24,000 nucleotides of DNA from Promethearchaeum sp. (GCA_030612265.1 JAUWOE010000011.1:10606-34605); one strand, 5' to 3'; numbered from the stretch's first letter, positions 580-22,753 are shown. Notes: generated from the letters alone by a model not told the origin. A program made the numbers and translations.

Positions 580-1509
580 GTGGATAAAAAATTATTTTTT
601 TCATATCTTTATTTAATCATAGCAATTTTTTTATGGGCAACTATAGAAATCGCGATGAGTTTAATTCAAGATAACACAACCCCAATACTAATCAATTTTC
701 TTCGGTTTTTTATTGGGGGGATAAGTTTATTGTTTTATAATATTTTAACCAGAAACACTCAAACTTTAAAGAATTTAATTAAAACTTTTCCGAAATCATA
801 TCTTATCGCTTCTTTCTTTGGTTTAACTATAGGTATGACTTTGTTTGCATATGGAACATCAATGACTGAACCCTTTTTGGCGGCAGCCATTATAAGTTCG
901 AATCCCCTTTTAATTTCAACATATATGATCTTATTTAAAGGTGAGAAGCGTTCATTTAAAAAAATTTTCGGGATAATTTTAGGATTCATTGGCATGATTA
1001 TGATTATAACTGATTTTAAATTCAAGGATTTTCTCCAAACGGAATATATGATAGGAAACATATTAGTTTTCATTGGAACCGCGTTATGGTGCGTAGACTT
1101 GATTATTGGAAAGACATTATTAGAAAAAACTAAAGAGAATGAAGACAATTTTAAAGTAACAAGCTTGGATTTCAATATTGTTACCTTCCTTGCATCATCT
1201 CTTTTTATGATTCCACTTCTTACACTTCCGGGAGAATTTACAATATTAATAAATCAAAACTTGAGAACTTGGTTAATATTATTATATCTTGGTATCCTAG
1301 CAACTGGAGTTTCTTATCTTTTATTCTTTAAAGGAATAAGCAAGATGGAAGCTTCAAAAGGGATTAACCTTGTGTATCTGAAACCAATTTTTGCCACAAC
1401 TTTATCGTTTGTTATATTTAAAACTAATCCGAGCTTATTTTTTTATATTGGATGCACAATTGAAGTTCTAGCACTGATAATTATCTCCTACGAAAAATCC
1501 CCAAAGTGA
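580..1509 (+). CDS. EamA/DMT-superfamily permease (about 10 TM helices)
   Basis: 309-aa ORF that is hydrophobic throughout, with two similar halves as in EamA-repeat transporters. GTG start: the first in-frame ATG is codon 26 and would remove TM1. Its stop (TGA 1507-1509) overlaps the GTG of the next ORF, suggesting co-transcription. Confidence 0.7.
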   Translation: MDKKLFFSYLYLIIAIFLWATIEIAMSLIQDNTTPILINFLRFFIGGISLLFYNILTRNTQTLKNLIKTFPKSYLIASFFGLTIGMTLFAYGTSMTEPFLAAAIISSNPLLISTYMILFKGEKRSFKKIFGIILGFIGMIMIITDFKFKDFLQTEYMIGNILVFIGTALWCVDLIIGKTLLEKTKENEDNFKVTSLDFNIVTFLASSLFMIPLLTLPGEFTILINQNLRTWLILLYLGILATGVSYLLFFKGISKMEASKGINLVYLKPIFATTLSFVIFKTNPSLFFYIGCTIEVLALIIISYEKSPK

Positions 1510-3083
1510 AGTCAATCATGAAAATTTCCCCAATCAAAAAATTTTATAATAAATATTTTCCAAATCACATGATTTACTTCTTAATTTTAGCTATCCTCAT
1601 AAAATTGGGCTTTTTTTTATATGGTATTTATTGTTATAAAATGGGTATTTCAGTTACTTTCAATTCAATTTTTGCTGAATGGGCGAATGAATGGTGGCAT
1701 GTAGAAGGTTTAAGTGATTTTAATGGCGATTATATGATGTTTCGAGATAATTGGTTAAATGAAGAACCACTTTACTCAGAAGCATTTAATGGAAGATACC
1801 TTTATCCACCATTATATTACTATTTAATTAATCTTTTTTCAAAATGGACCATTTTTTCAGCACCAATCGTTATGTTCATCTTTAATATCGCAACGGGATA
1901 TCTTGTCTTTCATCTTTCTAAAAGTCTTGGTGCTAGTGGGAAATTTTCAACTACAATGATGCTACTCACATTATTATCCCCTTTTAATTTACTTTACTCA
2001 GATTATATATGGCAGAACACAGGTGTTTTTACAACTTTTGTAGTTTGGAGCATGTTAGAAATTAGTAAAGAACGTTATGAAACAGGAATGGTATTAATTG
2101 GTATAGCTATTTGCATTAAACAAGTTGCTATTTTTTTCCTACCTGTATTTCTTTTAGGAATTGTGTATAAAGTTAATACTATCTCGGAATATAAAAGTAA
2201 ATCGAGGAATAAATTTGTAGAATATATTAGATCGGTGAATTGGTCTAAACTAATTTATTATACTTCAATACCAATCATAATTTTTATAATTTGTTCAATT
2301 CCCTTCATTTTTACGATTCCAGAAACATATTTTAGGCAGTTATTTGGAGGATTCAATATGAAAGTTGAAGATATTATAGAAACTTTTGATAATGTCGTCA
2401 CAGTCTACAATAGAGATGGATTCTTGGGATATTTTCCAAATTCATCATTAATTGAAGGGGAAGAAATTTATCGAGCAAATCATCGCAGTGCGTTGGATTT
2501 AGCTCTAGCTTGGATTGGATTCCTTTTCAGAATTCCAACTTTCATTACAATTGGATTTTCAATTTTATTCCATTTCAATTTCTTTATGTTATTATTTGTA
2601 ATAATTGTCAATGTAAATTTCTGGAGAATTGCAAAAAAAAAGAAATACTCTACAGATAAAGAATACTACTGGCTGATGTGGTTTTCAGCTTCTCTTAGCT
2701 TTTTTGCTCTTCTAGTATTTTATGATTACGGAATTTACAAATACTACTTTGTTTCATTAACACCGTTTTGGGCAATGTTCGGTTTATCTGGGAAACTAAA
2801 TCATTCAATCTGGAAAAAAAATTATAAGGTTTCTAAATTAAAAGATCAATTTTTTGGAGGAGGAGCGATTATTCACGTTGTATCCCAGTTAATTCTACAG
2901 ATAATTATGATATATTTCAATAAATGGCTTGCACCTGTATTTCTTTTCCTTCCACTTTTCTTATTTTCTTTCGTGAATCATTGGAAAAGGAGTAAATCGG
3001 AAAAAATTTGGAGATTTAGTGAAAAATTTAACTTAAATCCAACAATTTATGTAGATTTACAATCTCTCTGCGTTGAACCTTAA
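1506..3083 (+). CDS. Polytopic GT-C-type glycosyltransferase, candidate PIG-M/PimE (DUF2029)-like mannosyltransferase
   Basis: 525-aa multi-TM ORF. The first loop, LSDFNGDYMMFRDNWLNEEPLYSEAFNGRYLYPPLYYYL, parallels the PIG-M/DUF2029 loop motif as I recall it (TDIDY.VF.DAA....G.SPY....Y.Y.PLL). There is no STT3/AglB WWDYG motif. The start may be the ATG at 1518 rather than the GTG at 1506. Confidence 0.55.
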   Translation: MKSIMKISPIKKFYNKYFPNHMIYFLILAILIKLGFFLYGIYCYKMGISVTFNSIFAEWANEWWHVEGLSDFNGDYMMFRDNWLNEEPLYSEAFNGRYLYPPLYYYLINLFSKWTIFSAPIVMFIFNIATGYLVFHLSKSLGASGKFSTTMMLLTLLSPFNLLYSDYIWQNTGVFTTFVVWSMLEISKERYETGMVLIGIAICIKQVAIFFLPVFLLGIVYKVNTISEYKSKSRNKFVEYIRSVNWSKLIYYTSIPIIIFIICSIPFIFTIPETYFRQLFGGFNMKVEDIIETFDNVVTVYNRDGFLGYFPNSSLIEGEEIYRANHRSALDLALAWIGFLFRIPTFITIGFSILFHFNFFMLLFVIIVNVNFWRIAKKKKYSTDKEYYWLMWFSASLSFFALLVFYDYGIYKYYFVSLTPFWAMFGLSGKLNHSIWKKNYKVSKLKDQFFGGGAIIHVVSQLILQIIMIYFNKWLAPVFLFLPLFLFSFVNHWKRSKSEKIWRFSEKFNLNPTIYVDLQSLCVEP

Positions 3084-4194
3084 TGATTTTTTTTGCTTCA
3101 ACTAAATTAGATTTTAATGATTGCATTTCTTCTAAAATCTCTTTCAATTTTGAATCTAATTCAGGATCTGTTGTGATATTGGAATTGATTCTTAAGGTTT
3201 GGGCAATTTCAAGTTTATTTTTAAGATCGGTTATTTTATCATTTAAGGATTTAATTTCCCTTTCAGTTTTTTGATTTTTATCTCTGGAAACTTCTAATTC
3301 AGCATTAATTTCGGCAATATTAATTCTTAAATCAAATAATTTCTTTGAATCGGAAGAATTTTCTATTTCACCTTCTAATTCCTTTACTTTTTGAATAAGG
3401 TTATTTACTGAGTCTTTCAGTTTTTGGTTTATTTCATTAGCTGTTTCCAATTGTTTTCTCCAAATAAGCGATTTATCTTTCTGAACCTTCAAAGTTTCTT
3501 CTTTTTCTTCTTTTTCATGAGTAAGAGAAACTTTTTCTTCTGTTAATTCCCTAACCTTATCTTTCCAACCCATAAGTTCTTTTCTTAATTTTTCAATTTT
3601 TTCTTCATAACGTATCTCTAACTCGTTTAATCTCTTCTTTATATCCTCTGAATGAGAATCATCAATTGTTTGAGTAGGTGAGTCAATTTTACTTCTAGTT
3701 TCAAATTTGGGAGGAGTAGTTATACTAATTGGTTTGGATTTTCCTAAGTTCTCAATTAAATTTTTAAATTTTTGTCCCAATATTTCATCGAAATCTTGAT
3801 ATTTAGGGTCTTTTGATAAACCTTCACTAATCTCTCCATCGTTTTCTCGAATATAAGCAAGCATTGGGAGGACTTCTTTCGCAACTTTTTTTAAAGGTTC
3901 TTCAAAAAGAGTCGGATTTTCATTGTCCAATATAATACCCAAACATTGATTTGGATACCCGATGAAATTATTATCAATACCTGAAAAAAATGATCCGATT
4001 TGAACGCCTTTAATTTTCAGGTAAATATAGTTAGGATTAGAATTTCGCATTCTATTAAACGAATAAATTTTATTCTGGTCAACTGAGTTAATTTTTAACT
4101 GATCTGAAATTCCACTTGGATATTCTCTGTCAATGAAGGCTCCAGGGACCTTATGGTAACTTAACAAAAATATTCCTTTCATTTCAAAAATCAT
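3028..4194 (-). CDS. Longin/uDENN-like N-terminal globular domain fused to a ~200-aa coiled coil; function unknown
   Basis: 388-aa ORF. Residues 1-150 show a beta-beta-alpha-beta-beta-beta-alpha hydrophobic pattern (GIFLLSYHK, GAFIDREYP, YIYLKIKGVQIGSFF, QCLGIILD, FEEPLKKVAKEVLPML). Residues ~185-388 are heptad-like and rich in K/E/L/I/N (KKRLNELEIRYEEKIEKLRKELMGWKDKVRELTEEK...). No TM segment. Confidence 0.6.
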   Translation of the reverse strand: MIFEMKGIFLLSYHKVPGAFIDREYPSGISDQLKINSVDQNKIYSFNRMRNSNPNYIYLKIKGVQIGSFFSGIDNNFIGYPNQCLGIILDNENPTLFEEPLKKVAKEVLPMLAYIRENDGEISEGLSKDPKYQDFDEILGQKFKNLIENLGKSKPISITTPPKFETRSKIDSPTQTIDDSHSEDIKKRLNELEIRYEEKIEKLRKELMGWKDKVRELTEEKVSLTHEKEEKEETLKVQKDKSLIWRKQLETANEINQKLKDSVNNLIQKVKELEGEIENSSDSKKLFDLRINIAEINAELEVSRDKNQKTEREIKSLNDKITDLKNKLEIAQTLRINSNITTDPELDSKLKEILEEMQSLKSNLVEAKKIIKVQRREIVNLHKLLDLS

Positions 4195-4202
4195 GAGGAT
4201 AA

Positions 4203-5018
4203 ATGCAAAAAAATTTATTAAATTTTCTTCTTATTTACTCAATGGAGGATAGACGGTTTTTTTCTATATTTTTGGGTAATTTTCAAACGAAACAATTAAA
4301 AAAATATATTTTAATAACATTTATGATCATAGTTACGCTTTTATGCATTTCATGGATATTGTATCCTAAAGAGTTAAATTATTCAATTATGACACATACT
4401 ATTTCATATTTAGGTGATTATGAAAAAAATCCAAATGGTTGGATATTCTTTAGCATAGCATTTATTTTCATGTCAATCTTTTTTATTCCTTTGATATTAT
4501 ATATACAAAAACGAATTTTTAAAATTTCACAAGTGGGTTCTTGGATAGGGACTTCTTTTTTATTTGTAGGTGCAGTGTGTGGATTTACAACAGCGTTATT
4601 ACCTGATGTCTACGGAACAAACTTTATAAAAGATCTATCACTTGGAAAAATTCATAATATTGTAGCATTATTTGCAATTTTTGGTTTTATTTTAGGTCTT
4701 TTTGAATATGGAATCCTATTTTTCATAGATTACTGGCCAATTTTTCATCGAAATCGTGAGGGGGTATATGCTTACTTGTCGGTTTTTCCAGTGTTTCTCC
4801 CATTCACTCTTATTGGAATTGGTACTTTGATTACTCAAATAATTCGTGTTAGATTGGGAGGAGAATGGCCAGGTCCAGGTATTTTAAGCTTTCCCTTATG
4901 GGAGTGGATGTTATCTCTAACATTTTTCATAACTATCTATGGCTTAGCCTTAAGATTATCTCAAAAAATCCCGAAGAATATCAATCCGGATTCTGAACAA
5001 TTAAGTAACTTCCAATAA
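4203..5018 (+). CDS. DUF998-like polytopic membrane protein (paralog A); the start is probably the ATG at 4242
   Basis: 271-aa ORF with about 6-7 TM helices. The motifs ISYLGDYEKNPNGWIFFSIAFIF and FPLWEWMLSL are shared with the convergent neighbour. The track start at 4203 leaves only 8 nt to the divergent ATG at 4194, whereas Met14 (4242) fits the TATA spacing. Confidence 0.7.
   Translation: MQKNLLNFLLIYSMEDRRFFSIFLGNFQTKQLKKYILITFMIIVTLLCISWILYPKELNYSIMTHTISYLGDYEKNPNGWIFFSIAFIFMSIFFIPLILYIQKRIFKISQVGSWIGTSFLFVGAVCGFTTALLPDVYGTNFIKDLSLGKIHNIVALFAIFGFILGLFEYGILFFIDYWPIFHRNREGVYAYLSVFPVFLPFTLIGIGTLITQIIRVRLGGEWPGPGILSFPLWEWMLSLTFFITIYGLALRLSQKIPKNINPDSEQLSNFQ
4211..4225. promoter_or_regulatory. 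Palindromic TATA-like element, candidate bidirectional promoter core
   Basis: AAATTTA-T-TAAATTT is a perfect 7+7 inverted repeat centred on T4218. The centre lies 24 nt from the A of the minus-strand ATG at 4194 and 24 nt from the A of the plus-strand in-frame ATG at 4242. Confidence 0.4.
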
Positions 5019-5718
5019 TCCAATAAACGATACCCAGAACCAAAATCCATTCCCACAATGGTAAAGAAAAATTAATCAAAATTATTCTATGGTAATAATA
5101 TAGCCAGAACAAGAAAAATACAAATAAAAACCCTATTAAAGTTCCATAAAACACAATATATAAACCAACAATTTGCCAAATTTTTGGCCAAGGGTCTTTA
5201 TTAATTATTTTTTTGATAAAAATATAGAGATAACAAGAAAATACAGTTGTAAATCCTATAATAGCAATTATTGCATTTGTATAATGAGGAATGGGATTAT
5301 CCTCAGGAAAAAATCCAACTCCAATAACACAAATACATGAAATTATGCTTATAACAAGAGCAGATCTTGAAGTATGATAAGCGGTAGGTCGGAAAATTCT
5401 ATAAATATAAATGAAATAAGGAATAAAAAGTAAACCTGAAAAAATAAGAGCAATTCTGAATAATATAAATCCATTTGGATTTTCTGACTTAATTCCAAGA
5501 CTGCTTACACTTTCTCTAAGCATTAAATGAGGATCATTGTATATAATAGCCGAAATTATTATTAAAATGACTACAACAGAAAAAGTTGAGAAAAATAGGT
5601 ATCCTTGATTTTTCTTTGAACTTCTCCCTTGTAAAATCGATACAAAGAGGGAATTTTTGGTATTGGAATTCATAAAAAAACTTCTTCTCCTCTCTTTTAA
5701 ATTACTATTTATAAGCAT
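4981..5718 (-). CDS. DUF998-like polytopic membrane protein (paralog B), last gene of the minus-strand operon
   Basis: 245-aa ORF. VSSLGIKSENPNGFILFRIALIFSGLLFIPYFIY and LPLWEWILVL align with paralog A. Its ATG lies 14 nt inside the 3-prime end of the upstream amidohydrolase gene (5705-5718 overlap). Confidence 0.7.
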   Translation of the reverse strand: MLINSNLKERRRSFFMNSNTKNSLFVSILQGRSSKKNQGYLFFSTFSVVVILIIISAIIYNDPHLMLRESVSSLGIKSENPNGFILFRIALIFSGLLFIPYFIYIYRIFRPTAYHTSRSALVISIISCICVIGVGFFPEDNPIPHYTNAIIAIIGFTTVFSCYLYIFIKKIINKDPWPKIWQIVGLYIVFYGTLIGFLFVFFLFWLYYYHRIILINFSLPLWEWILVLGIVYWIIGSYLIVQNPD

Positions 5719-7282
5719 TTGTTAGCATAGTTGTTGCATCTTCTGAATTTGCTGCAGGAAAAGAATTTTTGAACATTTCATGAAACATTTGTCTTGTATC
5801 GGGATCAAAATATTTATATCCCATCTGTTTCCATTCAAAGTTCCCAGCGCTCATTAATCCCACATCATCATGTAAATTTAGTATTACTAATGGAATTATT
5901 TTTTCTGGATTAAGTTTGGATTGTGTGACAAGGCAAGATTCATTATTGTATTTACTCCAATCTTCATTAAATTGTAGTAAATGTTGCTTTATATCCATAA
6001 CACCATTATCTATTAGATTTGCTAAAGTTTGAAACATCATATGCTTAACAGATACAGGTTCTTTTGGCATTTTTGGATGATTTTGAGGAAGAATTTTTGA
6101 ATCTTGGATAATAGTTGATACGGGAGTAATATTATTTGAAAATTTAACTTCTCGTCCATATTCGGGAAATAATTTTAGCTGATTTAATCCAAGAATATTA
6201 ATTATATCCTGCAAATTTCCTCCATTTTCAAAAAAGGACGAATACATAATGTTATCAAAGAAAGCTTTTGCGTGCATTTCTTGGAAATATGTATAATCGG
6301 AACCGTACAAGCAAAATTCCGACCATCTCCTTCCTGTTTTCTTTTGAACCCCATTTTGTTCACACCACTCGCTAAATCCTTTGAAGAAACGTTCTACTGT
6401 CTTTCCTTGGCAAAGTGACATATCCATATATGTATTGGGTTGCGCTATTGTATTATAGACTTCAAAATCATCAATGTTCCCTGCAGCAGCGTGAGCAATT
6501 ATAACTTTTAAATTATTCAATAAATGTGGAAATTGTTTTTTTATAATCATACGCGTTTTTGAAACTAATTCGCCAATATCTAAAATGGTTTGCCTACCTC
6601 GAGTATCGAAAATAACAGGCCAATTATATGAAGCTGCTTTGATTAAATTATTGATAGAATTTTGAGAAGTAACTTTGTCTAACCACCCTTCAGAGCGCGG
6701 ATGTAATTTTAGTCCTCTAATATTATTTATTCCATTAGCCCAGTAATCAATTTCATCAAGCGCCTTTTTTCTTTCGTCCGGATGCACTCTTATATACCCA
6801 TTCAATCTTAAACTAACAGGAAATTTGGAAACCTGGCGCGAAATATTTGTATTACTAGCACGATATAATGCTTCTGGTTTTTTATCACGGAATATATCTT
6901 GAAACGGGAACACTACACCTTGATCAATAAGGTTTTGATATTTTATTCGCTCCCAGTAGTCTGTATAACTCCCACTTTTATTCCGTGCTTGTAATTCTTT
7001 GAAAATTCTTTTTATTATGGGCATTTGAACAAATTCTAGTGAAATTTTGGTTGGAACTCTATCAATGACAGTATCATATGTTGGAGATGTTTTTCCATCT
7101 GCCCAGTCTTTTAAAATCAAATGTTCAATTCTGCCCCAAAAATCGAAAGTCCCCTGCCCTGCTTGCATTGGATTCATCATTTCGTGGCCGTCAACGTCTT
7201 TACCCATATGACTGTGGCTGTCGATTACGATAATATTAGTTTCCCTGGTTTTTCCATTCACTACAGTTGTTATTTTCAGCAT
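5705..7282 (-). CDS. Amidohydrolase-2-type metal-dependent TIM-barrel hydrolase with a ~130-aa C-terminal extension
   Basis: 525-aa ORF. It carries the N-terminal HxH motif (IVIDSHSHMGKD), then GLKLHPRSEGW, VIFDTRG, KVIIAHAAAGN, YMDMS and LYGSDYTYF. This order is typical of amidohydrolase-2/COG2159-like enzymes. The tail after about residue 390 has no family I recognise. Confidence 0.7.
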   Translation of the reverse strand: MLKITTVVNGKTRETNIIVIDSHSHMGKDVDGHEMMNPMQAGQGTFDFWGRIEHLILKDWADGKTSPTYDTVIDRVPTKISLEFVQMPIIKRIFKELQARNKSGSYTDYWERIKYQNLIDQGVVFPFQDIFRDKKPEALYRASNTNISRQVSKFPVSLRLNGYIRVHPDERKKALDEIDYWANGINNIRGLKLHPRSEGWLDKVTSQNSINNLIKAASYNWPVIFDTRGRQTILDIGELVSKTRMIIKKQFPHLLNNLKVIIAHAAAGNIDDFEVYNTIAQPNTYMDMSLCQGKTVERFFKGFSEWCEQNGVQKKTGRRWSEFCLYGSDYTYFQEMHAKAFFDNIMYSSFFENGGNLQDIINILGLNQLKLFPEYGREVKFSNNITPVSTIIQDSKILPQNHPKMPKEPVSVKHMMFQTLANLIDNGVMDIKQHLLQFNEDWSKYNNESCLVTQSKLNPEKIIPLVILNLHDDVGLMSAGNFEWKQMGYKYFDPDTRQMFHEMFKNSFPAANSEDATTMLTNAYK

Positions 7283-7306
7283 TATTTTCGATTTCCTAGT
7301 ATTATT

Positions 7307-8968
7307 TTATAACATATAATCAGGCAGAGTTAAGGTTCCGGTCAAAGGTTGTTGTATTGGATCCTGTGAATACGTTATTGTAAAGTATTTAATATCTTCA
7401 AATATATTCGGTTCTTGCCCCTGTTTAACTTTCCAGTCATATAATGAAAGCTGATATTCTGCTTCGGTCATGGGAGGGGATGCGTAAGTAATCTCACCAA
7501 AAACTGATTGCAATAAAGGTTTGAAGAAAGGACTGTATAAATATCCGAGTTCGATAAGCTCATCCTTGAAATAACGAAACATTTGCTCAACTGCTTGAAA
7601 CATGAACCTATGCGGTTTATCTACCGGTCCTAAATAACATTCAGAAAAAAATCCCGTAGTGTCGTATTGATCAACATAACTTCTATCCAAATTTTTACCA
7701 TTGAACAATCCAATAAGTCCACGCTCAATGGCCATTTTCCTATTAAGACAAATAGTGTCAGAATTCACATCAGGAACGTATTTCCCTTCGGATAATATTT
7801 TCCGTGCTTTATAATACATCGTTTCAATTAACATGGCAATTCCAATTCTACGGCATATTGATATTTGAGCATCGCAGATTCTTAATTCAATTGTTCCATA
7901 TTTTGTAAATGGAAAAACATCTTGAAATCTTGCATCATAAAGTGAAGCATAACCAGTGGTAGCTAATAAGAACTGTTGATCTGCTTCTATTCCATTTACA
8001 CCTGATAAATATGGAAGATATTTCTTTGGATCAGTTGAATCAGAAAGCATAGTGGTGTTATTAAGTAATCTAATAGATCTTATACATTTTGGTGCTGTAT
8101 AACGGGGTTTTCCATCAACAATTTTAGATTTTATCACATCTGTGGGTTTTGAATTTAAGATTGGACTGTTTACGCTAAGTGCTATAATATGAGGAATAAA
8201 ATTTCGAACCATGGAATAACATTGGACTTTTTCCTGGTCAGAACTAAATGAACCACAATGATGATGATCTGAATGTGAAAGACCTCGAATATATTCCTTC
8301 ATTGTAGGGTTCATTGCAGTAGACATAATAGAATATCCACGAGGAAGCGTCGCTTTAGCAACATTGAATAGAGTGCCTGCCCAATACGCCAATTCTTCCG
8401 CATATTGACATGGAGGGGTTACTAATTCCAAAATAAATGTAGCCATGGTAACATTCCCATCACGACCGAACATATCAACGGGTACAATTTGATTTGCGTA
8501 TGTGTTTTCAATTTGGTAATCAATACAGCATAAAAAGCCTTTTTCTACATCAGTACGATTATACGGCATTTTACGGATCTTATTACGGATGTATTCGGGC
8601 ATATAAGGAAAGTCGTCCCGTTCGTAATTAATTAGCTGTTTAAAGATTCGGGTAGCATCATTCACCATTTCCTTCATAGTGTGGGTCATATCATCACCCT
8701 CGAGATATGTACCATCTTTGGTATGTGCTACGACTAATTCCATCTCCATACCGTGCGAAAAAGGCAGATAGCGCCAATTTGGAAGATCATTTAAGATTTC
8801 TGTCCAATCCCTTGAGTCTACGGCGGTTTTGGTAGCGGTACTTGTGAATACAGGTGAACTAGTTTGACTTTGTTGCGAATTAGATTTGGAGCCAGAAAAC
8901 ATTCCGAATGCGTTTGGTAGAGCTTCTCCGGTTTTTTTCTTCTTTCTTGCCATTTTGATGTGATCCAT
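7307..8968 (-). CDS. GCS2-family carboxylate-amine ligase (glutamate-cysteine-ligase-2/YbdK-like) with a disordered basic/Ser-Thr-rich N-terminal extension
   Basis: 553-aa ORF. The motifs occur in GCS2 order: FSHGMEMELVV, FILELVTPPC, SHSDHHHCG, IPHIIALSVNSPIL, IRSIRL, YDARF...YGTIELRICDAQ. The first ~55 aa (MARKKKKTGE...SGSKSNSQQSQTSSPVFTSTATKT) are low-complexity. An alternative start is Met6 at 8953. Confidence 0.75.
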   Translation of the reverse strand: MDHIKMARKKKKTGEALPNAFGMFSGSKSNSQQSQTSSPVFTSTATKTAVDSRDWTEILNDLPNWRYLPFSHGMEMELVVAHTKDGTYLEGDDMTHTMKEMVNDATRIFKQLINYERDDFPYMPEYIRNKIRKMPYNRTDVEKGFLCCIDYQIENTYANQIVPVDMFGRDGNVTMATFILELVTPPCQYAEELAYWAGTLFNVAKATLPRGYSIMSTAMNPTMKEYIRGLSHSDHHHCGSFSSDQEKVQCYSMVRNFIPHIIALSVNSPILNSKPTDVIKSKIVDGKPRYTAPKCIRSIRLLNNTTMLSDSTDPKKYLPYLSGVNGIEADQQFLLATTGYASLYDARFQDVFPFTKYGTIELRICDAQISICRRIGIAMLIETMYYKARKILSEGKYVPDVNSDTICLNRKMAIERGLIGLFNGKNLDRSYVDQYDTTGFFSECYLGPVDKPHRFMFQAVEQMFRYFKDELIELGYLYSPFFKPLLQSVFGEITYASPPMTEAEYQLSLYDWKVKQGQEPNIFEDIKYFTITYSQDPIQQPLTGTLTLPDYML

Positions 8969-8981
8969 TTTATTATTGATG

Positions 8982-11108
8982 TTATAATATTGCTTTAAAA
9001 AATGTTTTTAATAATCTAATATCATTTAGAAAATTATAGGTTAAAATTATATTGCAAATTCGAAAATTTGGTTCTTTCAAAACATTTTGGAGATATATAA
9101 AGGATTTTCCTTTACTGAAGAATGTATTATTGATCATTAAATTTATTTCATCGTTAAAATTTTCCTTCAACTTTGAATAGATATCTTTTACAAGGGGGTC
9201 GCCATTATCACCCAGGAAAATCGTTGGTTTTGAAAAATAAGGAATTAAATCTAGGTTAACAACAACAAACGGAGATGGATGCTGCTTAGATTGATTTTTA
9301 ATATAATTTTTCAATACATTATTGTAGTGATTTAATTCTTCTTCATTAAAATTCTCTTTTGATGGGAATAATAAAAAACCGAATGTTTTTTGAGTTTCCT
9401 GTAATAATTCAACATAAACGCGTTGAATATTCAAATATATAGGAAAATCAAACTTATATGGGCTAATAAGCATGATGTTGGATGTTGTTTTTCCCTCAAT
9501 TAAATTAGAGCTGATATTTCCTTGTAGTTCAACTAAATATTTAATTGCAGGTGTAATATTTTTTGATATTGCTGGGAAAGTATAATGTAGTGTATTAATT
9601 TCTTGAGATTCCATCTTTATTTTCTTGGTTTGAACCTTGACTTTCAGATATTCTTGTAATTGTTCAATTAAAAGGGATTTTTCATCTTTCGAGTCGAATT
9701 CTTCAATTATATCATAAACTGATTGGGGCTCTGTAAGATACGCCAAAAAAATCATGCATGTCTTTATTAGCTCAGTATTTGATTCGGAAAGGATGTTGGA
9801 GATGAGACTCTTTAATGATTCTATAGCTCGATTTTTATTGTATTTCGCCCAGTTTTTAATTAATTCAAATAAAACTTTTTGTTGAAGCTCTTTGCTGGAT
9901 AGTTGATAAACTAAATTTGATGCTATTTCAGGTTTCAAAGAAGCCGCAGTAAAAATAATATTTGTAATTATCTCATCTCTTTTTAACTCATTATCAATAT
10001 TTAATGCAATCATAGCAGCTTCATCAGGTTTATCTGAAGCGAGGCTGTTGGAAATAATTTCCATAATCGAATCTTTATGATCTCCTAAGTCCATACCCAT
10101 TACAACTTCGATGGTAACTTTAGGTTCCAGCTGCATCCCTGGTGGAATAAATTGAGAAACAATGGAATATTTTAAAGTTGGATCCGGGATCATTTGGAGG
10201 ATTTCATAAGCATATTGGGGGTTTTGATTAAAAACACCTTTAGCGATACGAGTTAACATTTCATTTTTCTGTTCCAGAGTGATTTCACTTTCTTTAGTCG
10301 AATTCGGCGAAATTTTAGGCTCTTCAATTGTTTCCACTATAGTTTCAACTTTCTCTTCCATCACTGTTTCGGAAACTGTTTTCATCACTGTTTCTTCTAC
10401 CGATTCATAAACAGTTTTAGTGATTTTACGAGGAGGTCTACTAATTTTTTTTCCCGTGATAGAATTAATTAGAGGTTCTTGCGCGATTACCTCTTCAATA
10501 ACTTTTGGTATTTTTTTTATGATTTTTTCGGAAACTTGTTTAGTTATTGTTTTTGGAACTTGTTTTATTACTTTCTTAGTAATTTCACGTGTGTGGGTCT
10601 TATGTATTGGAATTTTGGTTATTTTGTCTAATTCTTTTTTTGCTTTCGATTTTGATAATGCAGGAATATCAGTGAGTATTATGGATTTTGGTAATTTCTT
10701 TTTAAAAGCGGTCAGATCTTCAAATTTGATGTCGCTTTTTACCAGAATATCTGTAACAATGGATTTTTCCACCTTTTTTCTTATTTTCCATTCCATAGAT
10801 TTAAATTCGATTTTTTTCTGGTAATAGGTTAAAACATTTAATTCTGTTAAACCTCCTTCGATTCGGGGTTTAATCAATACAGGCAATATTTTAGTTTCTC
10901 CTGGATCAAAAGATTGTCCTTTTGAAATTGATTTATCTACAGAAAGATCACTCGTTGTACTTGTAAATTTAAAAGCATATGATTCTTCAGATTCTGAATT
11001 ATTCTTAACTGAAAATGAAAGTTCATAATCTTGACTTCCTAAAAGTAAAGTTTGTGGATAATTTAATAATTCTATTGAAATAGAATCCGAGTGAGATTTT
11101 TTTGCCAT
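8982..11108 (-). CDS. 708-aa multidomain protein of unknown function: N-terminal beta-sandwich-like domain, Lys/Glu-rich repeat tract, alpha-solenoid-like middle, alpha/beta C-terminal domain
   Basis: Long ORF ending 13 nt upstream of the ligase gene. The N-terminus has alternating beta-strand patterns (YELSFSVKNNSESEESYAFKFTS...GETKILPVLIKP), like Ig/CARDB-type sandwiches. Residues ~153-265 are charged repeats. Residues ~280-500 are a run of amphipathic helices. No TM segment and no signal peptide are evident. Confidence 0.75.
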   Translation of the reverse strand: MAKKSHSDSISIELLNYPQTLLLGSQDYELSFSVKNNSESEESYAFKFTSTTSDLSVDKSISKGQSFDPGETKILPVLIKPRIEGGLTELNVLTYYQKKIEFKSMEWKIRKKVEKSIVTDILVKSDIKFEDLTAFKKKLPKSIILTDIPALSKSKAKKELDKITKIPIHKTHTREITKKVIKQVPKTITKQVSEKIIKKIPKVIEEVIAQEPLINSITGKKISRPPRKITKTVYESVEETVMKTVSETVMEEKVETIVETIEEPKISPNSTKESEITLEQKNEMLTRIAKGVFNQNPQYAYEILQMIPDPTLKYSIVSQFIPPGMQLEPKVTIEVVMGMDLGDHKDSIMEIISNSLASDKPDEAAMIALNIDNELKRDEIITNIIFTAASLKPEIASNLVYQLSSKELQQKVLFELIKNWAKYNKNRAIESLKSLISNILSESNTELIKTCMIFLAYLTEPQSVYDIIEEFDSKDEKSLLIEQLQEYLKVKVQTKKIKMESQEINTLHYTFPAISKNITPAIKYLVELQGNISSNLIEGKTTSNIMLISPYKFDFPIYLNIQRVYVELLQETQKTFGFLLFPSKENFNEEELNHYNNVLKNYIKNQSKQHPSPFVVVNLDLIPYFSKPTIFLGDNGDPLVKDIYSKLKENFNDEINLMINNTFFSKGKSFIYLQNVLKEPNFRICNIILTYNFLNDIRLLKTFFKAIL
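10314..10652 (-). repeat. Coding low-complexity repeat tract: a Lys-rich part followed by a Glu/Thr/Val-rich part
   Basis: The protein reads ...ITKKVIKQVPKTITKQVSEKIIKKIPKVIEEVI...KITKTVYESVEETVMKTVSETVMEEKVETIVETIEE. At DNA level CATCACTGTTTC occurs at 10359-10370 and again at 10383-10394, a 24-nt (8-aa) period. Confidence 0.7.
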
Positions 11109-11187: not shown

Positions 11188-11673
11188 TTATTCGAATTGA
11201 CGTTTTACTTCTACTAATCCTTTTGTACTCTTTATTGATATTTCTTCTTCTTGGTTTTTGATCACATTGAGAAAATTTTCTATTCCATTTCCGATTGAAA
11301 TAAACTCAGCTTGAAAATCTTTAAAGGGAACTCCAACCAAACAATCGATTTCAATGTATAAATTATTCTTAAATAGTGAAAATGTGCACTCTGGTAAATC
11401 GTAATTTAAACCCAAAGAGATTTCATAAATTGTTAAAATTGTTTGTGAAGGGAAAAGTGCGGTATTAAGCAGTAATGCTTTGACGTGTACCCATTTTCCA
11501 AGATTATAAAGAATTACATCAAAATCAAGCTCTCTACACCTATATACGCAGATAATAGCCGGAAATATTTCTTTATCTTTATCCCCGATATCTTGAAACT
11601 CATAGGGAATGTTCATTTGATCCAAATATTCGGCAATGTTTCCTAAATTTTTTCTTTCGTTTATATAACCCAT
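11188..11673 (-). CDS. YbjN/type-III-secretion-chaperone-like small protein (tentative)
   Basis: 161-aa ORF. The pattern NIAEYLDQMNIPYEF...FPAIICVYRCRELDFDVILYNLGKWVHVKALLLN...TILTIYEISLGLNYDLPECTFSLFKNNLYIEIDCLV..PFKDFQAEF resembles YbjN-family proteins (a helix, paired beta-strands, L..lN.......F.l....l.l..d). Called from motif recall only. Confidence 0.5.
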   Translation of the reverse strand: MGYINERKNLGNIAEYLDQMNIPYEFQDIGDKDKEIFPAIICVYRCRELDFDVILYNLGKWVHVKALLLNTALFPSQTILTIYEISLGLNYDLPECTFSLFKNNLYIEIDCLVGVPFKDFQAEFISIGNGIENFLNVIKNQEEEISIKSTKGLVEVKRQFE

Positions 11674-11803: not shown

Positions 11804-12460
11804 ATGGTAAAAGATATTTTTAAGCTCATGATAATTCATAGGGCAGCATCAGTCTGTATTTTTGAACAAACTTTTAATGAACTTCCTGGAGAAGTTGATG
11901 AAGTGGTATTATCAGGATATCTAGTTGCCATTTTTGCCCTTTCTGAAGAAATTGCTAAACAATCAATACATTATATGCAGTTAAACACATTACGTATTTC
12001 ATTCAAAAAAAATGTATCTGATAATTATATCATGGTGCTTATTACAAAAAATGAAATTAAATATAGTAGAATCCTTCAAATTCTAGAAAACTTATCCGAA
12101 AAGTTTAATGAAAAATATCTAGTCCATTTTGAACGAGAGTTTACTGGTAATATTACCCATTTTAAGAATTTTGCCCTTGAAGTCGAAGGTCTTATCCATA
12201 TGGAAACGAGGTATTTCCAATATTTGCAACAACGAAGTGAAAAAATAAATGAATATTTCGAGTCAATTGAATATAATTGGAAAGATTTACGAGATAAATT
12301 GGAAAAAAGGGCACGGATATTTGGAAAATGGAGTATTAAACACGATATGAAAATCGATAAATCGCTTGAAAATACCCTACTAGAATCGCGTGATCATGGT
12401 AGAAAATTGGAGCATGAGGAAAAGAAAAAAGAAAAAGAAGAAGGAAAAGGTTGGGTTTAG
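11804..12460 (+). CDS. Longin-like domain protein with a helical middle and a highly charged C-terminal tail
   Basis: 218-aa ORF. Residues 1-105 follow the longin order beta-beta-alpha-beta-beta-beta-alpha: [74 protein letters not shown]. The C-terminus is [16 protein letters not shown]. Confidence 0.6.
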
Positions 12461-14753: not shown

Positions 14754-15140
14754 CTAAGGATATAATTCTGCAATTTTTCCAGCGTAGTATCGAAATACCG
14801 TAACAGTTTTGCCAAGATCTTGAATAGTTCGACTTGCACCTATTAAAAAAAACCTACCAGCAGAAGATAGTACCATAAAGCTTTTTCTACCGCGTAAGAC
14901 AACTTCAATTAATTTATTGTATCCTATTTTGGTTACAGACTCCTCACCGCTTTGTAATAGAACTGCGCCCATTGCACAAAGTGAATCTGGATTGATTTGA
15001 TTTGCGCTAGGAATCGCTGAATAAGCTAATCTCATTCCTTCTCGGGAAACTAGAGCCAGAGCGTCAAGTTCAGTATTTGATGTTATGTTCGCAAGATAGG
15101 CACTAAGCTCATTAGCGTCGCTTTCGTTTAGTGATGACAT
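14754..15140 (-). CDS. Roadblock/LC7/MglB-family protein
   Basis: 128-aa ORF. LDALALVSREGMRLAYS...PDSLCAMGAVLLQSGEESV...LIEVVLRGRKSFMVLSSAGRFFLIGASRTIQDLGKT matches the Roadblock/LC7 alpha-beta-beta-alpha-beta-beta-beta signature. It lies 74 nt upstream of, and co-oriented with, the vWA gene. Confidence 0.85.
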   Translation of the reverse strand: MSSLNESDANELSAYLANITSNTELDALALVSREGMRLAYSAIPSANQINPDSLCAMGAVLLQSGEESVTKIGYNKLIEVVLRGRKSFMVLSSAGRFFLIGASRTIQDLGKTVTVFRYYAGKIAELYP

Positions 15141-16916: not shown

Positions 16917-18476
16917 CTAAAAATTTTTTGATAAGAGAAGTGATTTTAAATTTTTAATTAGATCAGTTGCGAGTATCCTTGGTCCGCTTGATTTTTTAGC
17001 GGATTCACCTAGTAACCCATTTAAATATGCTGCAGAACAAGCACTATTAAATGGTGTGTTTCCGATGGAAAGAAAAGCCGATACTAGTCCAGATAAAACA
17101 TCACCTGTCCCACCAACCGACATTTCAGGGCATCCGCTACGATTTACCCTATAAATACTTTCCTTTTTGGAAATTTTTATAATGTAATCATAGACTCCCT
17201 TTACTAAAAACACCCCTCCAATTTTCTTCAAGATTGAAATCAGTTCTTCACCGTGTTTTTCAATATCATCGAATTTTGGGAGATTTTCAAATTGGACTAA
17301 TGATTTAAGTTCTGCAATGTGTGGTGTTAATACTACTGGGGAATTTTGTAATTTAATTTTGCTCTCTTTGATTAGTTTACCCAACATTTTAATACCATCT
17401 GCATCAACAACACAAGGGATTTTTTGATCAATAATCCATAAGATAAATTTTTCAAAAAATTCAACGGTTTTAGGATCTTGACCCAGTCCGGGACCGATTA
17501 GCACCGTATCAGACCATTGGCTCAATTTTTTTGCTTTGTTAAAATCTAAGTTAGTAAAATTTTTTGCAACACCTTCTTGCACAATTAAATTTGGAGAAAA
17601 ACTTCTTACTACATTTCCAATTCCCTTAGGTACAAAACAAATACATAAATCAATACCTAATTCAAGTGCGGACATTGCCGCAAGTGATGGCGCGCCTGAA
17701 TATGAAGAAGATCCTCCAATCACCAGTAATTTTCCATATTGACCTTTATGGACATCTTTTTTGCGTTTTTTAATTGCAACCTTAATATCTCCATCTCCAA
17801 CAAAAAGACTAGCTTCTATTGGAATTCCAATTGGAGCCACCCAGGTGTTAATATTGGCGAATCCTTGTTTTTTAGCATGGAAAGTTATACATAAATCACA
17901 GTTCACAACTTTATCGGTGATTTTTCCTGTATCTGGATCCATTCCTGAAGGTACATCTACGGAGATTTTTGGTATTTTGCTTTGGTTTATTATATCTATT
18001 GCCGTAGAAATCGGATCTCTTATCTTTCCTTTAATACCTGTTCCCAATAACGCATCAATAATGATATCTGCATTCTTAAACCATTTAGATTTGGAAAGAG
18101 TTTTAAGTTGATTGATATTTTTAGTATAAAAAGCGCGAATTTTTAAAGAAAGAGTATTAACTAATTCCCAATTTAACCTTGTTTCTTCGGTACGTATATG
18201 AATCGGATCCCCTAAGAGTAAAACATTAACAAAAACTCCTCGAGTGGCCAGATGTCTTGCAATACATAGTCCATCCCCACCGTTATTTCCTGTTCCGCAT
18301 AAAATAATTACAGATGATTCTGAATTAAGATTGTATTGTTCATAAATTTTGTTTGTCGCTTGTAAACCTGCACACTCCATCAAATAACCATTTGGTATGC
18401 CTAAACTCGCGCTGTTTGCATCCAATAGAGAGACATCTTTTGCAGTGATTGTATCATTATTAAAATTAAAACTCAT
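16917..18476 (-). CDS. nnr: Bifunctional NAD(P)H-hydrate repair enzyme (NAD(P)HX epimerase / ADP-dependent dehydratase; YjeF_N plus carbohydrate-kinase domains)
   Basis: 519-aa ORF. The N-terminal half carries CGTGNNGGDG. The C-terminal half carries KGQYGKLLVIGGS...GAP.LAA, LTPH..E and GGTGDVLSG, which are typical of YjeF/Nnr. Confidence 0.9.
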   Translation of the reverse strand: MSFNFNNDTITAKDVSLLDANSASLGIPNGYLMECAGLQATNKIYEQYNLNSESSVIILCGTGNNGGDGLCIARHLATRGVFVNVLLLGDPIHIRTEETRLNWELVNTLSLKIRAFYTKNINQLKTLSKSKWFKNADIIIDALLGTGIKGKIRDPISTAIDIINQSKIPKISVDVPSGMDPDTGKITDKVVNCDLCITFHAKKQGFANINTWVAPIGIPIEASLFVGDGDIKVAIKKRKKDVHKGQYGKLLVIGGSSSYSGAPSLAAMSALELGIDLCICFVPKGIGNVVRSFSPNLIVQEGVAKNFTNLDFNKAKKLSQWSDTVLIGPGLGQDPKTVEFFEKFILWIIDQKIPCVVDADGIKMLGKLIKESKIKLQNSPVVLTPHIAELKSLVQFENLPKFDDIEKHGEELISILKKIGGVFLVKGVYDYIIKISKKESIYRVNRSGCPEMSVGGTGDVLSGLVSAFLSIGNTPFNSACSAAYLNGLLGESAKKSSGPRILATDLIKNLKSLLLSKNF

Positions 18477-18565
18477 TAAAATAGAATAAAAAAAATGACC
18501 TTAAATTCAATTCGCATTTAACTTAACCATTAAATTTTCACCACCCAATTTATGGAACAACTAAA

Positions 18566-20449
18566 ATGGAAAATCAATCATCAAAATCAAATAAATGGAA
18601 ACCGATCGAAGGAGATCTTTTCACCCGCTGGGCATCCCAAGTAAGCCCAGAATTACCTTATCCAGAATACCCACGTCCACAAATGATAAGAAGAGAATGG
18701 CACAACCTTAATGGTCTTTGGGATTATGCAATTATCACCAAAAATACTCCAAAAGAAGAAATAACAGAATGGGATGGGGAAATTCTCGTCCCATATCCTG
18801 TAGAATCTGCTTTATCAGGCGTAAAACGAAAATTATTTCCACAACAACATCTTTGGTATCAGCGGACATTTTCTCTTCCAAAAAACTGGGAAGAAAAATT
18901 AAACGACCATCGAATTCTATTACATTTTGGGGGAGTTGATTGGCAAACAACAGTTTGGGTAGATAACCAAGAAGTTTTATTTCATGAAGGTGGCGATATT
19001 CCTTTTTCGGTAGATATAACACCCTATTTAAAAATAATTCATAACAAAAACTCTCAAAATCTCCATGATTTGACAATTAGAGTTTGGGATCCTAGTGACA
19101 AAGGTCGTCAGGAGCGTGGAAAGCAGAAGCTAAAACCACATACAATTTTCTATACTGCAATGAGCGGTATTTGGCAAACAGTTTGGTTAGAGCTGGTTTC
19201 AGATCCATATATTTGCGATTTTCAGTTAACTCCTGATATTGATCGCGAAGAACTAAAGTTAAATTTCAATTTTTCCGGATTTATTGAAAAATTATCTGGT
19301 TTTTCAATAATGGTTGAGGTCTTAGAAAATGAAACTCAAATCTCTACAAAAAAAATAAATGTGGGCGATTTAAATGATAATTTTACAATTCCACTAACAA
19401 ATCCGAGACTTTGGTCTCCTTCTTCTCCATTCTTATATGATTTAAAGATATTTTTGATAAAAAATGGAAATGTAGATGGAAATGGTGATATAATTGATGA
19501 AATTAAATCATATTTTGGAATGCGAAAAATTTCAATTAATGAAGACATTCAAGGGATTCCACGAATTGAATTAAATAATAAATTTTTATTTCAGTTTGGT
19601 CTATTGGATCAAGGATGGTGGCCAGATGGACTATATACTGCCCCAAATGATCAAGCATTAAAATGGGATTTAGAAATTACAAAAGCGATGGGTTTTAATA
19701 TGGTGCGAAAGCATGTTAAAATTGAACCTGCGCGATGGTATTATCATTGTGATAAACTTGGACTTTTAGTTTGGCAAGACATCCCCTCTGGAGGCGTTTA
19801 CGGTGACTGGAAATGGGGTTTTCAGATGTTAGTTGCGATATGTTTAAAAAAGGCATGGTGGACAGGTCGAAATAAAAAGAGCATCCAAAAAAATTTTTAT
19901 CATGAATTGAAACAAATGGTCTCAACTTTATTCAATTTCCCTAGTATTGTTGTATGGGTTCCTTTTAATGAAGGTTGGGGGCAATTTCACACAAAAGAAG
20001 TAACTGAATATTTAAAATCGATTGATGAAACTAGGTTAATTGATAGCGCTAGCGGTTGGACGGATTATAAATGCGGAAATATTCACACGATTCATCGATA
20101 TCCCGGTCCTGGTATTCCAAAAGTAGAATCAAAAAATGGAAGAGGTTTGGGATTAAGTGAATTTGGTGGTTTTGGTTTAGAAATTCGGGAACACACTTGG
20201 AAAACCAAACGTAAAAAATGGGGATATCGCAAAATTAAATCAATATCGGAATTAAAAACAAAATATTCCCAATTAATAAAAAATTTGAAGCCACTAATCA
20301 AAAAGGGATTAAGCGCAGCAGTTTATACACAAACTACCGATATAGAACAAGAAATAAATGGTTTGATTTCATATGACCGTAAAGTTATAAAATTAGAGCC
20401 AGAATGGCTTAAAAATCTTCATAAAACCTTATATGAAGATGTAAATTAA
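18566..20449 (+). CDS. Glycoside hydrolase family 2 enzyme (beta-galactosidase/beta-mannosidase/beta-glucuronidase-like), cytoplasmic
   Basis: 627-aa ORF. It has an N-terminal sugar-binding-like region (LNGLWDY...LHFGGVDWQTTVWVDNQ), then a TIM barrel: FNMVRKHVKIEP, LGLLVWQDIP, the acid/base motif WVPFNEGWGQ and the nucleophile motif LSEFGGFG. No signal peptide. Confidence 0.8.
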   Translation: MENQSSKSNKWKPIEGDLFTRWASQVSPELPYPEYPRPQMIRREWHNLNGLWDYAIITKNTPKEEITEWDGEILVPYPVESALSGVKRKLFPQQHLWYQRTFSLPKNWEEKLNDHRILLHFGGVDWQTTVWVDNQEVLFHEGGDIPFSVDITPYLKIIHNKNSQNLHDLTIRVWDPSDKGRQERGKQKLKPHTIFYTAMSGIWQTVWLELVSDPYICDFQLTPDIDREELKLNFNFSGFIEKLSGFSIMVEVLENETQISTKKINVGDLNDNFTIPLTNPRLWSPSSPFLYDLKIFLIKNGNVDGNGDIIDEIKSYFGMRKISINEDIQGIPRIELNNKFLFQFGLLDQGWWPDGLYTAPNDQALKWDLEITKAMGFNMVRKHVKIEPARWYYHCDKLGLLVWQDIPSGGVYGDWKWGFQMLVAICLKKAWWTGRNKKSIQKNFYHELKQMVSTLFNFPSIVVWVPFNEGWGQFHTKEVTEYLKSIDETRLIDSASGWTDYKCGNIHTIHRYPGPGIPKVESKNGRGLGLSEFGGFGLEIREHTWKTKRKKWGYRKIKSISELKTKYSQLIKNLKPLIKKGLSAAVYTQTTDIEQEINGLISYDRKVIKLEPEWLKNLHKTLYEDVN

Positions 20450-20483
20450 TCAAATTTTTTATGACACCATAAAAAGGAAAAAG

Positions 20484-21866: not shown

Positions 21867-21910
21867 TTTTTTTTATTTGACCATTTTTAATGTATCTATA
21901 ATTACATTAA
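21867..21910 (+). terminator. Oligo-T tract plus hairpin downstream of the transporter gene
   Basis: A T8 run (21867-21874) starts immediately after the stop codon TAA (21864-21866). It is followed by a perfect 8-bp inverted repeat, TTAATGTA (21887-21894) and TACATTAA (21903-21910), with an 8-nt loop. Confidence 0.4.
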
Positions 21911-22739: not shown

Positions 22740-22753
22740 AGAACGAAATAATT

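Follow-up and report, generated by a model that had tools for sequence, protein, structure and literature searches.

A divergent GCS2-type carboxylate-amine ligase and an amidohydrolase-like metallo-enzyme in a conserved Asgard archaeal gene module

Of all known organisms, Asgard archaea stand nearest to eukaryotes, and for the majority of the conserved genes specific to their lineages a function has yet to be assigned. Outside this group, ATP-dependent carboxylate-amine ligases are known to be paired with hydrolases. In the EgtA/EgtC pair, a GCS2-family ligase adds a gamma-glutamyl group that is later removed by a hydrolase of the same operon, the Ntn-type amidohydrolase EgtC. An amidohydrolase is likewise joined to a glutamine synthetase (GS)-like gamma-glutamyl ligase in FluG/NodGS and SCO6961-SCO6962, either as a fusion or as adjacent genes, and the substrate of these pairs is unknown (PMC6478659). 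The superfamily of carboxylate-amine/ammonia ligases, the GhExE signature of which is defined in PMC2588565, also contains PafA and Dop, which establish that a protein carboxylate can be ligated to lysine by enzymes with this fold (PMC2588565). Described here is a gene module on a 24,000-nucleotide (nt) stretch of DNA from Promethearchaeum sp. (GCA_030612265.1 JAUWOE010000011.1:10606-34605), called the window below and used in its full length as the frame for all window coordinates. There, a divergent GCS2-type ligase and an Amidohydro_2-like metallo-enzyme (the hydrolase) are encoded downstream of a large protein, termed the scaffold. The locus is the Promethearchaeum-type version of an Asgard-wide module with the core order scaffold, ligase, hydrolase, usually with a coiled-coil protein of 388 amino acids (aa; cc388), a VWA-domain protein, or both, alongside.

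Conservation of this neighbourhood was assessed by a scan of species-representative genomes, which yielded 80 loci, all Asgard by title, and to which loci fetched by protein identity were added. The six-frame open reading frames (ORFs) of the loci were searched iteratively with each window protein, and position counts use only those loci with enough flanking DNA. At a ligase identity of at least 70%, 73 of the 82 loci form one clade, a caveat on the sampling, though the genomes in it are divergent from one another. In 73/73 loci the gene immediately upstream of the ligase, in the same orientation, is that for the scaffold; the hydrolase gene follows the ligase on the same strand in 70/73, directly adjacent in 53; these two counts exceed what chance would give. 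Further downstream, a cc388 homologue is encoded in 46 of 63 loci, in 34 of them as the immediate neighbour of the hydrolase. Along this series the gaps have medians of 61, 35 and 155 nt, and median identities within the main clade are 81% for the ligase, 70% for the hydrolase, 44% for the scaffold and 38% for cc388. An earlier reading of the window, made from its sequence alone (the sequence-only reading), had proposed a link among the ligase, the hydrolase and a large protein, and this link holds in Loki-, Hel-, Thor-, Hermod-, Hod- and Heimdall-labelled genomes. The same reading had drawn the unit as four genes, the fourth encoding a DUF998 membrane protein; of these, scaffold, ligase and hydrolase are conserved across Asgard archaea, whereas DUF998 was found in only 8/85 loci of one lineage. 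Since the 8 loci with the DUF998 gene (DUF998a) also carry a second one (DUF998b), and all belong to the Promethearchaeum/Lokiarchaeum group, the conserved unit is scaffold-ligase-hydrolase(-cc388), and the DUF998 pair is a lineage-specific insertion between hydrolase and cc388.

Beyond the main clade, ligase and hydrolase are still paired in Helarchaeota and Heimdallarchaeota, where ligase identity has dropped to 40-44%. In the Helarchaeota locus L090 (ligase 44% identical), a VWA protein 47% identical to that of the window is encoded directly upstream of a minimal scaffold, ligase and hydrolase, the minimal scaffold consisting of an immunoglobulin-like (Ig-like) N-domain and the conserved C-domain. 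Genes for a RING protein, an Arf-like GTPase and, beside the latter, a homologue of a 218-aa window protein (L090 12342-12779) lie downstream of this module. In the Heimdallarchaeota locus L091 (ligase 41% identical), the order is VWA, a 399-aa protein, ligase and hydrolase, with the VWA gene two genes upstream of the ligase and in a single run with ligase and hydrolase; the 399-aa protein was considered as a scaffold homologue and rejected (hhalign probability 0.3%, BLASTP E=0.28). Additionally, an Amidohydro_2 gene lies 30 nt upstream of the gene for a 1086-aa Heimdall/Gerd ligase fusion, and a VWA-like and a hydrolase-like gene are adjacent to each other near a Thor ligase paralogue. Given its occurrence in the Hel, Heimdall, fusion and Thor loci, the ligase-hydrolase pairing, kept even in distant paralogues, is ancestral to the family and older than the divergence of Asgard classes. 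VWA is a recurrent fifth partner of the module. The MIDAS motif of the window VWA protein, read directly from the sequence, is intact (DISRS...T...D), and the protein further has a proline-rich linker of ~150 aa (PPPxP runs) and three small repeat-like N-terminal domains.

The window ligase matches Pfam GCS2 (PF04107) at 27.8 bits against a cut-off of 21, in an alignment that covers 65 of the 291 profile positions, and the Pfam scan returned GCS2 only, with no Pup_ligase match. None of the NCBIfam YbdK/GshA cut-offs (TIGR02050, NF010039-45) was reached, the best score being 46 bits against 176.4 and the others 16-44 bits against 332-437, so that this is not a bona fide gamma-glutamylcysteine ligase. 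A PDB profile search with 30 orthologues retrieved YbdK-type structures only (1r8g, 1tt4; E ~1e-5), over short motif blocks. The active site is nevertheless complete relative to the superfamily: the GhExE signature on the first core strand (G73-M-E75-M-E77) is invariant in the 30 orthologues and in nearly all paralogue clusters, and the further metal-binding residues E181, H235, H237 and E361, as well as the arginines R347 and R363, are invariant or nearly so. All the ligase motifs quoted in the sequence-only reading (GMEMELVV, ILELVTPP, HHHCG, ALSVNSPIL, GTIELRICDAQ) are found in the translation. Because the full carboxylate-amine ligase active site is retained, the enzyme should activate a carboxylate with ATP, as an acyl-phosphate, and couple it to an amine. 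Outside the catalytic core, the C-terminal tail PLTGxLxLPxxM is invariant, and 76 of 82 orthologues (the rest are truncated) begin with a poly-lysine stretch (consensus MAKDKKKKxKKKKK) followed by a D/G-T-F-S motif and a disordered linker. The window ligase itself has a polybasic start (MARKKKK), an LPNAFG motif and then the disordered linker; its N-terminus (8920-8968) reads MARKKKKTGEALPNAFG.

An exhaustive HMMER search returned 132 ligase clusters at 50% identity, 72 of them with E <1e-30. The named clusters are Asgard (Loki, Hel, Thor, Hod, Hermod, Heimdall, Gerd), and two clusters carry a Thermoplasmatota label. In many clusters the ligase domain sits at one end of a protein of 1000-3800 aa, and all twelve active-site positions are kept in ~60 of 71 alignable clusters, these giant proteins included. 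The giant paralogues also carry weak Ig-like matches, zinc ribbons or helix-hairpin-helix (HhH) motifs. Features of a targeting type recur in the family: the Heimdall version (P0256) ends in a transmembrane helix with KKKKRRR just before it, an N-terminal transmembrane-like segment is present in at least nine paralogue clusters, and a polybasic tract comes right after the ligase domain in many others. Furthermore, P0278 is a single protein of which the N-terminal part belongs to the window VWA family (E=5.5e-33) and the C-terminal part is a ligase.

Two side observations concern these paralogues. The non-catalytic regions of the giant proteins P0258-P0316 match nothing, and some of these proteins have zinc ribbons, HhH motifs or N-terminal transmembrane-like segments. 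The gene for P0278 lies at the end of its contig (L088) beside TIR, SLATT, Mom, QueC/QueF/TGT-like and several DNA methyltransferase genes, surroundings with the look of an island for defence or DNA modification. A search for homology linking the scaffold family to the extensions of the long ligase paralogues found none.

The second enzyme of the pair has no sequence match in the PDB, and at 17.1 bits the window protein stays below the cut-off of 26.4 for Pfam Amidohydro_2 (PF04909), a family for which many of its orthologues have precomputed matches. Its AlphaFold2 model (predicted local distance difference test, pLDDT, 89.8; predicted template modelling score, pTM, 0.90) comprises a TIM barrel followed by an extra C-terminal alpha/beta domain (~residues 388-525). 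The best PDB matches in Foldseek are 4lak (isoorotate decarboxylase), 4dzi (Map2389c), 8ful (AibH1H2) and 4dlf (COG3618 lactonase), at E 1e-7 to 1e-6, with dihydroorotases next; amidohydrolase-superfamily structures span E 1e-7 to 1e-4. Residues D21, H23, H25, H194, D226, H264 and D329 are invariant, in keeping with the superfamily pattern of an HxH on strand 1 and His/Asp ligands on later strands of a (beta/alpha)8 barrel, and the motifs quoted earlier for this protein (IDSHSH, LKLHP, IIAHAA, YGSDYTYF) are all in its translation. Thus, the model and its Foldseek matches confirm the amidohydrolase fold despite the low Pfam score, and the protein is confidently predicted to be an Amidohydro_2-like TIM barrel that keeps the metal site of the amidohydrolase superfamily. 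The role of an 'eraser', which had been suggested for it, is not implied by this family, as it is to Amidohydro_2-type decarboxylases, lactonases and diiron oxygenases that the protein is structurally closest; the metallo-enzyme may instead prepare the substrate of the ligase.

Pfam and NCBIfam scans of the scaffold gave no family. The protein is laid out as an N-terminal Ig-like beta-sandwich, a Lys/Glu/Thr-rich tract (~140-280), an alpha-solenoid (~280-490) and a C-terminal domain of ~200 aa. FixG_C Ig-like matches occur in 12 of 38 family members, Foldseek aligns the N-domain with 2r39 and MSP domains (target-normalised TM-scores of 0.4-0.55), and the solenoid matches TON_1535 (3zpj, E=8e-4). 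The C-domain, in which the invariant residues cluster, is the most conserved part of the protein; it has no match anywhere, its fold is not assigned, and it is not modelled by AlphaFold2 (pLDDT <50, against a mean of 60.5 for the whole model). The Lys/Glu-rich tract, stressed in the sequence-only reading, which had named the scaffold itself as one possible substrate, is missing from Thor and Hod scaffolds and is replaced by unrelated low-complexity sequence in Lokiarchaeum ossiferum, and therefore, being lineage-specific, it cannot be the conserved target; no DNA tandem repeats were found in it. Two further scaffold matches were set aside: TPGS1_C, a tubulin polyglutamylase subunit (E=0.047, 1 of 38 family members), as chance, and a whole-chain Foldseek match to complement/alpha-2-macroglobulin (TM-score ~0.11, from a low-confidence model) as meaningless, so that of the Foldseek results for this protein those of the Ig-like N-domain alone can be used.

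The reading preferred here, with a probability of about one half, is that the ligase and the hydrolase would act as a tethered pair on a macromolecular or membrane-bound substrate and not on a free metabolite. It is favoured because the non-enzymatic partners have Ig-like/solenoid, VWA-MIDAS and coiled-coil architectures, because VWA and ligase are fused in P0278 (Rosetta-stone evidence), because polybasic and transmembrane targeting features are present, because giant proteins carry catalytically intact ligase domains, and because the conserved set holds no transporter or further metabolic enzyme apart from a cis-prenyltransferase confined to one clade. Also counted in its favour are the conserved order and strand of the genes, the survival of the pairing in Helarchaeota, Heimdallarchaeota and beside the 1086-aa fusion, the poly-lysine start of the ligase, the lack of transmembrane segments in scaffold, ligase, hydrolase, cc388 and VWA, the far higher conservation of the ligase than of the scaffold, as given by their main-clade medians, and the GhExE signature together with the precedent of PafA for protein-directed members of the superfamily (PMC2588565). 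Judging from these sequence features, the pair would form a tethered complex, probably at the cytoplasmic face of the membrane, and its product would not be a free metabolite such as gamma-glutamylcysteine. As a first guess, the ligase would write an isopeptide-type linkage between a protein carboxylate and a lysine amine, which the metallo-enzyme would remove unless it prepares the substrate, whereas the scaffold, VWA and coiled-coil proteins would serve as recruiting or adaptor subunits; in the Promethearchaeum/Lokiarchaeum lineage, a DUF998 membrane protein would have been added to the operon. A bolder version of this proposal is improbable, namely an Asgard system of protein conjugation or cross-linking independent of ubiquitin and Pup, which would form isopeptide bonds at the membrane, recruit targets through VWA, Ig-like and solenoid domains, reverse the modification by a TIM-barrel metallo-isopeptidase and have radiated into giant enzymes.

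Several points weigh against a macromolecular substrate. The substrates of characterised GCS2 and amidohydrolase-superfamily enzymes are, to our knowledge, almost all small molecules. No isopeptidases are among the structures nearest to the hydrolase, which are decarboxylases, lactonases and oxygenases, and no conserved acceptor site for a modification was identified. Free-standing Pup-like ORFs (25-90 aa) were sought in the clusters, and none is conserved, the candidates being shadow ORFs only. The C-terminal domain of the scaffold could itself be an unrecognised enzyme. Lastly, ~18 loci have inserted genes, unrelated to one another, that separate ligase from hydrolase, so that strict co-translation of the two is not required.

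Some of these points speak for the main rival, a soluble small-molecule pathway on the FluG/NodGS or EgtA/EgtC model, in which a transient gamma-glutamylation or other amide intermediate is formed, the metallo-enzyme supplies or removes the amide partner and the scaffold organises a metabolon. Both enzymes have family precedents for such a pathway, the FluG-type pairing exists in fused form and as neighbouring genes in bacteria (PMC6478659), small aromatic compounds or lactones are the substrates of Amidohydro_2 relatives, and the lack of a tag-like ORF is as expected. We consider this explanation doubtful, if a serious contender, as it leaves unexplained the obligatory non-enzymatic partner of 600-700 aa, the fusion and adjacency of VWA, the coiled-coil partner, the poly-lysine tail, the transmembrane-anchored versions and the active domains in 1000-3800-aa proteins; no other metabolic gene or transporter is conserved, save the clade-confined cis-prenyltransferase, and the FluG-type structure 2QPX is outside the top 50 structural matches of the hydrolase. 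The narrower proposal of ordinary glutathione or gamma-glutamylcysteine biosynthesis by a GshA/YbdK orthologue with coincidental neighbours would fit the public annotation of orthologues ('glutamate-cysteine ligase family protein') and the GshA-family matches that a review lists in Asgard archaea (PMC7278568). It is contradicted, to the point of being scarcely tenable, by the family scores (16-46 bits against curated cut-offs of 176-437), by a ligase 180 aa longer than YbdK in which only short motif blocks align, and by neighbours conserved in 70-73 of 73 loci; the scores and the kept neighbours likewise contradict the outcome against which the sequence-only reading had set its proposal, a ligase placed within the gamma-glutamylcysteine ligases and lacking conserved neighbours.

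A different target, at the cytoplasmic face of the membrane, is suggested by the genes upstream of the module. In the large clade, the scaffold gene has a cis-prenyltransferase gene (PF01255, E=1.7e-57) as its immediate upstream neighbour, in the same orientation, in 50 of 63 loci (for example L004 7261-7986 and L005 5551-6294), at gaps of 109-274 nt, and beyond the prenyltransferase lies a divergent mevalonate operon (HMG-CoA synthase, HMG-CoA reductase, UbiD-like, AcnX). The pair might modify a lipid head group or a polyprenyl-phosphate-linked glycan, for instance by amidating a uronic acid or a serine/ethanolamine head group. The DUF998 membrane proteins and the GT-C (GT87/ALG6-8-like) glycosyltransferase that flank the window module, the polybasic tail and the transmembrane-anchored paralogues would all fit. 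However, only one clade shows the prenyltransferase adjacency (58 of its 73 members), which neither the five other ligase clades nor the Hel and Heimdall loci share, its gaps are never below 109 nt, the glycosyltransferase is found in 4 loci only, and no glycan or lipid enzyme is universally linked, which makes this target quite improbable. More improbable by far is an anti-virus defence or conflict system: the island-like genes beside P0278 (TIR, SLATT, QueC/QueF/TGT-like, methyltransferase) and the HEPN/MNT pairs inserted in some loci hint at one, but a PADLOC scan gave no real match, only coiled-coil noise, and the orthologues are single-copy, syntenic and, as the ligase median of 81% illustrates, highly conserved, unlike defence genes with their fast turnover.

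In the window, which is AT-rich (~28-37% G+C), the four minus-strand ORFs that the sequence-only reading had described were recovered with the same coordinates and spacing (Table 1). Other Promethearchaeum proteins are 89-93% identical to the window ligase, and synteny is complete with the close relative P. syntrophicum MK-D1. As called, the junctions between the four ORFs are gaps of 13 and 24 nt and an overlap of 14 nt. Alignment with orthologues suggests later start codons, at M6 in the ligase (leaving 28 nt to the scaffold gene) and near M16 in DUF998a (where a gap of ~31 nt would replace the overlap), so that the junctions would become ~28, 24 and ~31 nt. From this spacing (13-31 nt) and the conserved order, the ligase, the hydrolase and the large scaffold protein are probably functionally linked and co-transcribed. 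A scan for bacterial (sigma-70) promoters and terminators did not exceed the shuffle expectation, although this bacterial model is not applicable to archaea. Upstream of the scaffold gene, 79 nt away and in the same orientation, lies the gene for the 161-aa protein p161, which is conserved in 6 Loki-type loci only; as the corresponding gap is 5 nt in L. ossiferum, the transcription unit may begin one gene earlier, at p161, in the Promethearchaeum/Lokiarchaeum lineage.

Table 1. Genes of the module and its surroundings in the 24,000-nt window.
Feature	Coordinates	Strand	Basis or remark
Scaffold protein, 708 aa	8982-11108	minus	No Pfam/NCBIfam family; directly upstream of ligase in 73/73 loci
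Divergent GCS2-type ATP-dependent carboxylate-amine ligase, 553 aa, probable start 8953	7307-8968	minus	Pfam GCS2, invariant active site
Amidohydro_2-like metallo-enzyme (hydrolase), 525 aa	5705-7282	minus	AlphaFold2 and Foldseek, invariant residues
DUF998a, polytopic membrane protein, 245 aa, probable start ~5673	4981-5718	minus	Pfam DUF998
DUF998b, DUF998-like paralogue, 271 aa, probable start M14	4203-5018	plus	BLASTP to L. ossiferum pair
cc388, coiled-coil accessory protein, 388 aa, probable start 4182	3028-4194	minus	Homologues downstream of hydrolase
VWA-domain protein, 738 aa	12463-14679	minus	Pfam VWA, E=8.5e-11
p161, 161-aa protein	11188-11673	minus	No Pfam match
218-aa protein	11804-12460	plus, divergent from operon	No family match
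Roadblock/LC7 protein	14754-15140	minus	
GT-C-type glycosyltransferase	1506-3083	plus, convergent with cc388	
YjeF-type NAD(P)HX repair	16917-18476		
GH2 glycosidase	18566-20449		
MFS transporter	20484-21866		
PIN-domain protein	22305-22739		

The sequence-only reading did not include the cc388 gene, the VWA partner, the poly-lysine N-terminus of the ligase or the paralogue radiation into giant proteins. cc388 has a conserved globular N-domain (~130 aa) followed by a coiled coil (~200 aa); Pfam and PADLOC give coiled-coil noise only, and the N-domain has no PDB or Pfam match. A relationship of this N-domain to longin or roadblock proteins, guessed from its sequence pattern, was rejected on the lack of those matches and on an hhalign probability of 0.8% to the 218-aa family. 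Transmembrane segments are absent from the scaffold, ligase, hydrolase, cc388 and VWA proteins. DUF998a, in turn, has ~6-8 hydrophobic segments and matches Pfam DUF998 (PF06197) at 36.2 bits against a cut-off of 30, and the L. ossiferum DUF998 copy also matches Pfam Frag1 (PGAP2-like). The DUF998a and DUF998b genes stand tail to tail, their 3' ends overlapping by 38 nt. cc388 and DUF998b are divergent, with ~59 nt between their probable starts (4183-4241) and 8 nt between the longest ORFs, a spacing that implies a very compact putative bidirectional promoter region.

Among the remaining neighbours, the 161-aa and 218-aa genes are, like the DUF998 pair, restricted at the module to loci of the Promethearchaeum/Lokiarchaeum group; the 218-aa protein has a longin- or roadblock-like sequence pattern for which no match was found. 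On the strand of the VWA gene, a Roadblock/LC7 gene is found 74 nt upstream of it, and 29 other loci have Robl_LC7 genes ~6 kb downstream of the ligase. The GT-C gene product has weak GT87 and ALG6/ALG8 matches and ~11 hydrophobic segments, and its position is kept in 4 loci only. Genes inserted between ligase and hydrolase in other genomes were considered as a hidden component of the module and rejected as heterogeneous (HEPN/MNT, CitMHS, a corrinoid methyltransferase pair, a Rag-like GTPase). One insertion, found in 3-4 loci only, encodes, in three related genomes, a 275-aa protein (L005 9968-10795, L064 11632-12459, L077 2712-3551) with a CxxC...H zinc-ribbon-like N-terminus, a coiled coil and a weakly ubiquitin-like C-terminus (E 0.002-0.004) that ends in ...SSTAG. 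At the other end of the window, positions 16917-24000, which also hold LarA_C- and Ldh_2-matching fragments, are an ordinary housekeeping context, partly syntenic with MK-D1.

Most Asgard classes have the module, the conservation of its ligase is of a housekeeping-like degree, and the family has dozens of paralogue clusters. If the pair acts on proteins or membrane components, it would represent a new ATP-driven amide modification chemistry in a lineage ancestral to eukaryotic cell biology; if its substrate is a small molecule instead, it would point to an unknown and widely conserved Asgard metabolite. In either case, the genes are by now well enough delimited to be tested biochemically, and directly, in the two cultured species.

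No literature was found on this cluster or its MK-D1 locus tags, nor, beyond bulk InterPro counts, on GCS2/carboxylate-amine ligases in Asgard archaea, and the earlier statement that no characterised pathway matches the gene set stands, as the closest known systems all differ. Common to YbdK/GCS2 (PF04107; 1r8g, 1tt4) and the Asgard ligase are the GhExE motif for Mg/ATP, the Glu and His residues that bind metal, and the Arg fingers. In contrast to YbdK, the Asgard ligase is ~180 aa longer, aligns in short motif blocks only and below curated cut-offs, and has a poly-lysine tail, a conserved C-terminal extension, obligatory partner genes and giant-protein paralogues. EgtA/EgtC resembles the module in combining a GCS2-family ligase with a hydrolase, but EgtB, EgtD and EgtE are absent from the Asgard module. 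With PafA/Dop, the module shares membership in the superfamily of carboxylate-amine ligases and a writer/eraser logic. It differs in having no Pup_ligase match, no Pup-like ORF and no visible linkage to a proteasome, and its candidate eraser is a TIM-barrel metallo-enzyme and not a paralogue of the ligase. FluG/NodGS also couples an amidohydrolase-superfamily enzyme to a carboxylate-amine ligase of the GS fold. However, the FluG ligase is GSI-like, whereas the Asgard ligase matches GCS2 and not Gln-synt; the FluG amidohydrolase is 2QPX-like, a structure absent from the leading matches of the Asgard hydrolase; and the description of that system mentions no scaffold, VWA or coiled-coil partners (PMC6478659). 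The pairing of a ligase with an amidohydrolase is thus of an already known kind, and what is new here is an Asgard-specific radiation with an unprecedented set of partners.

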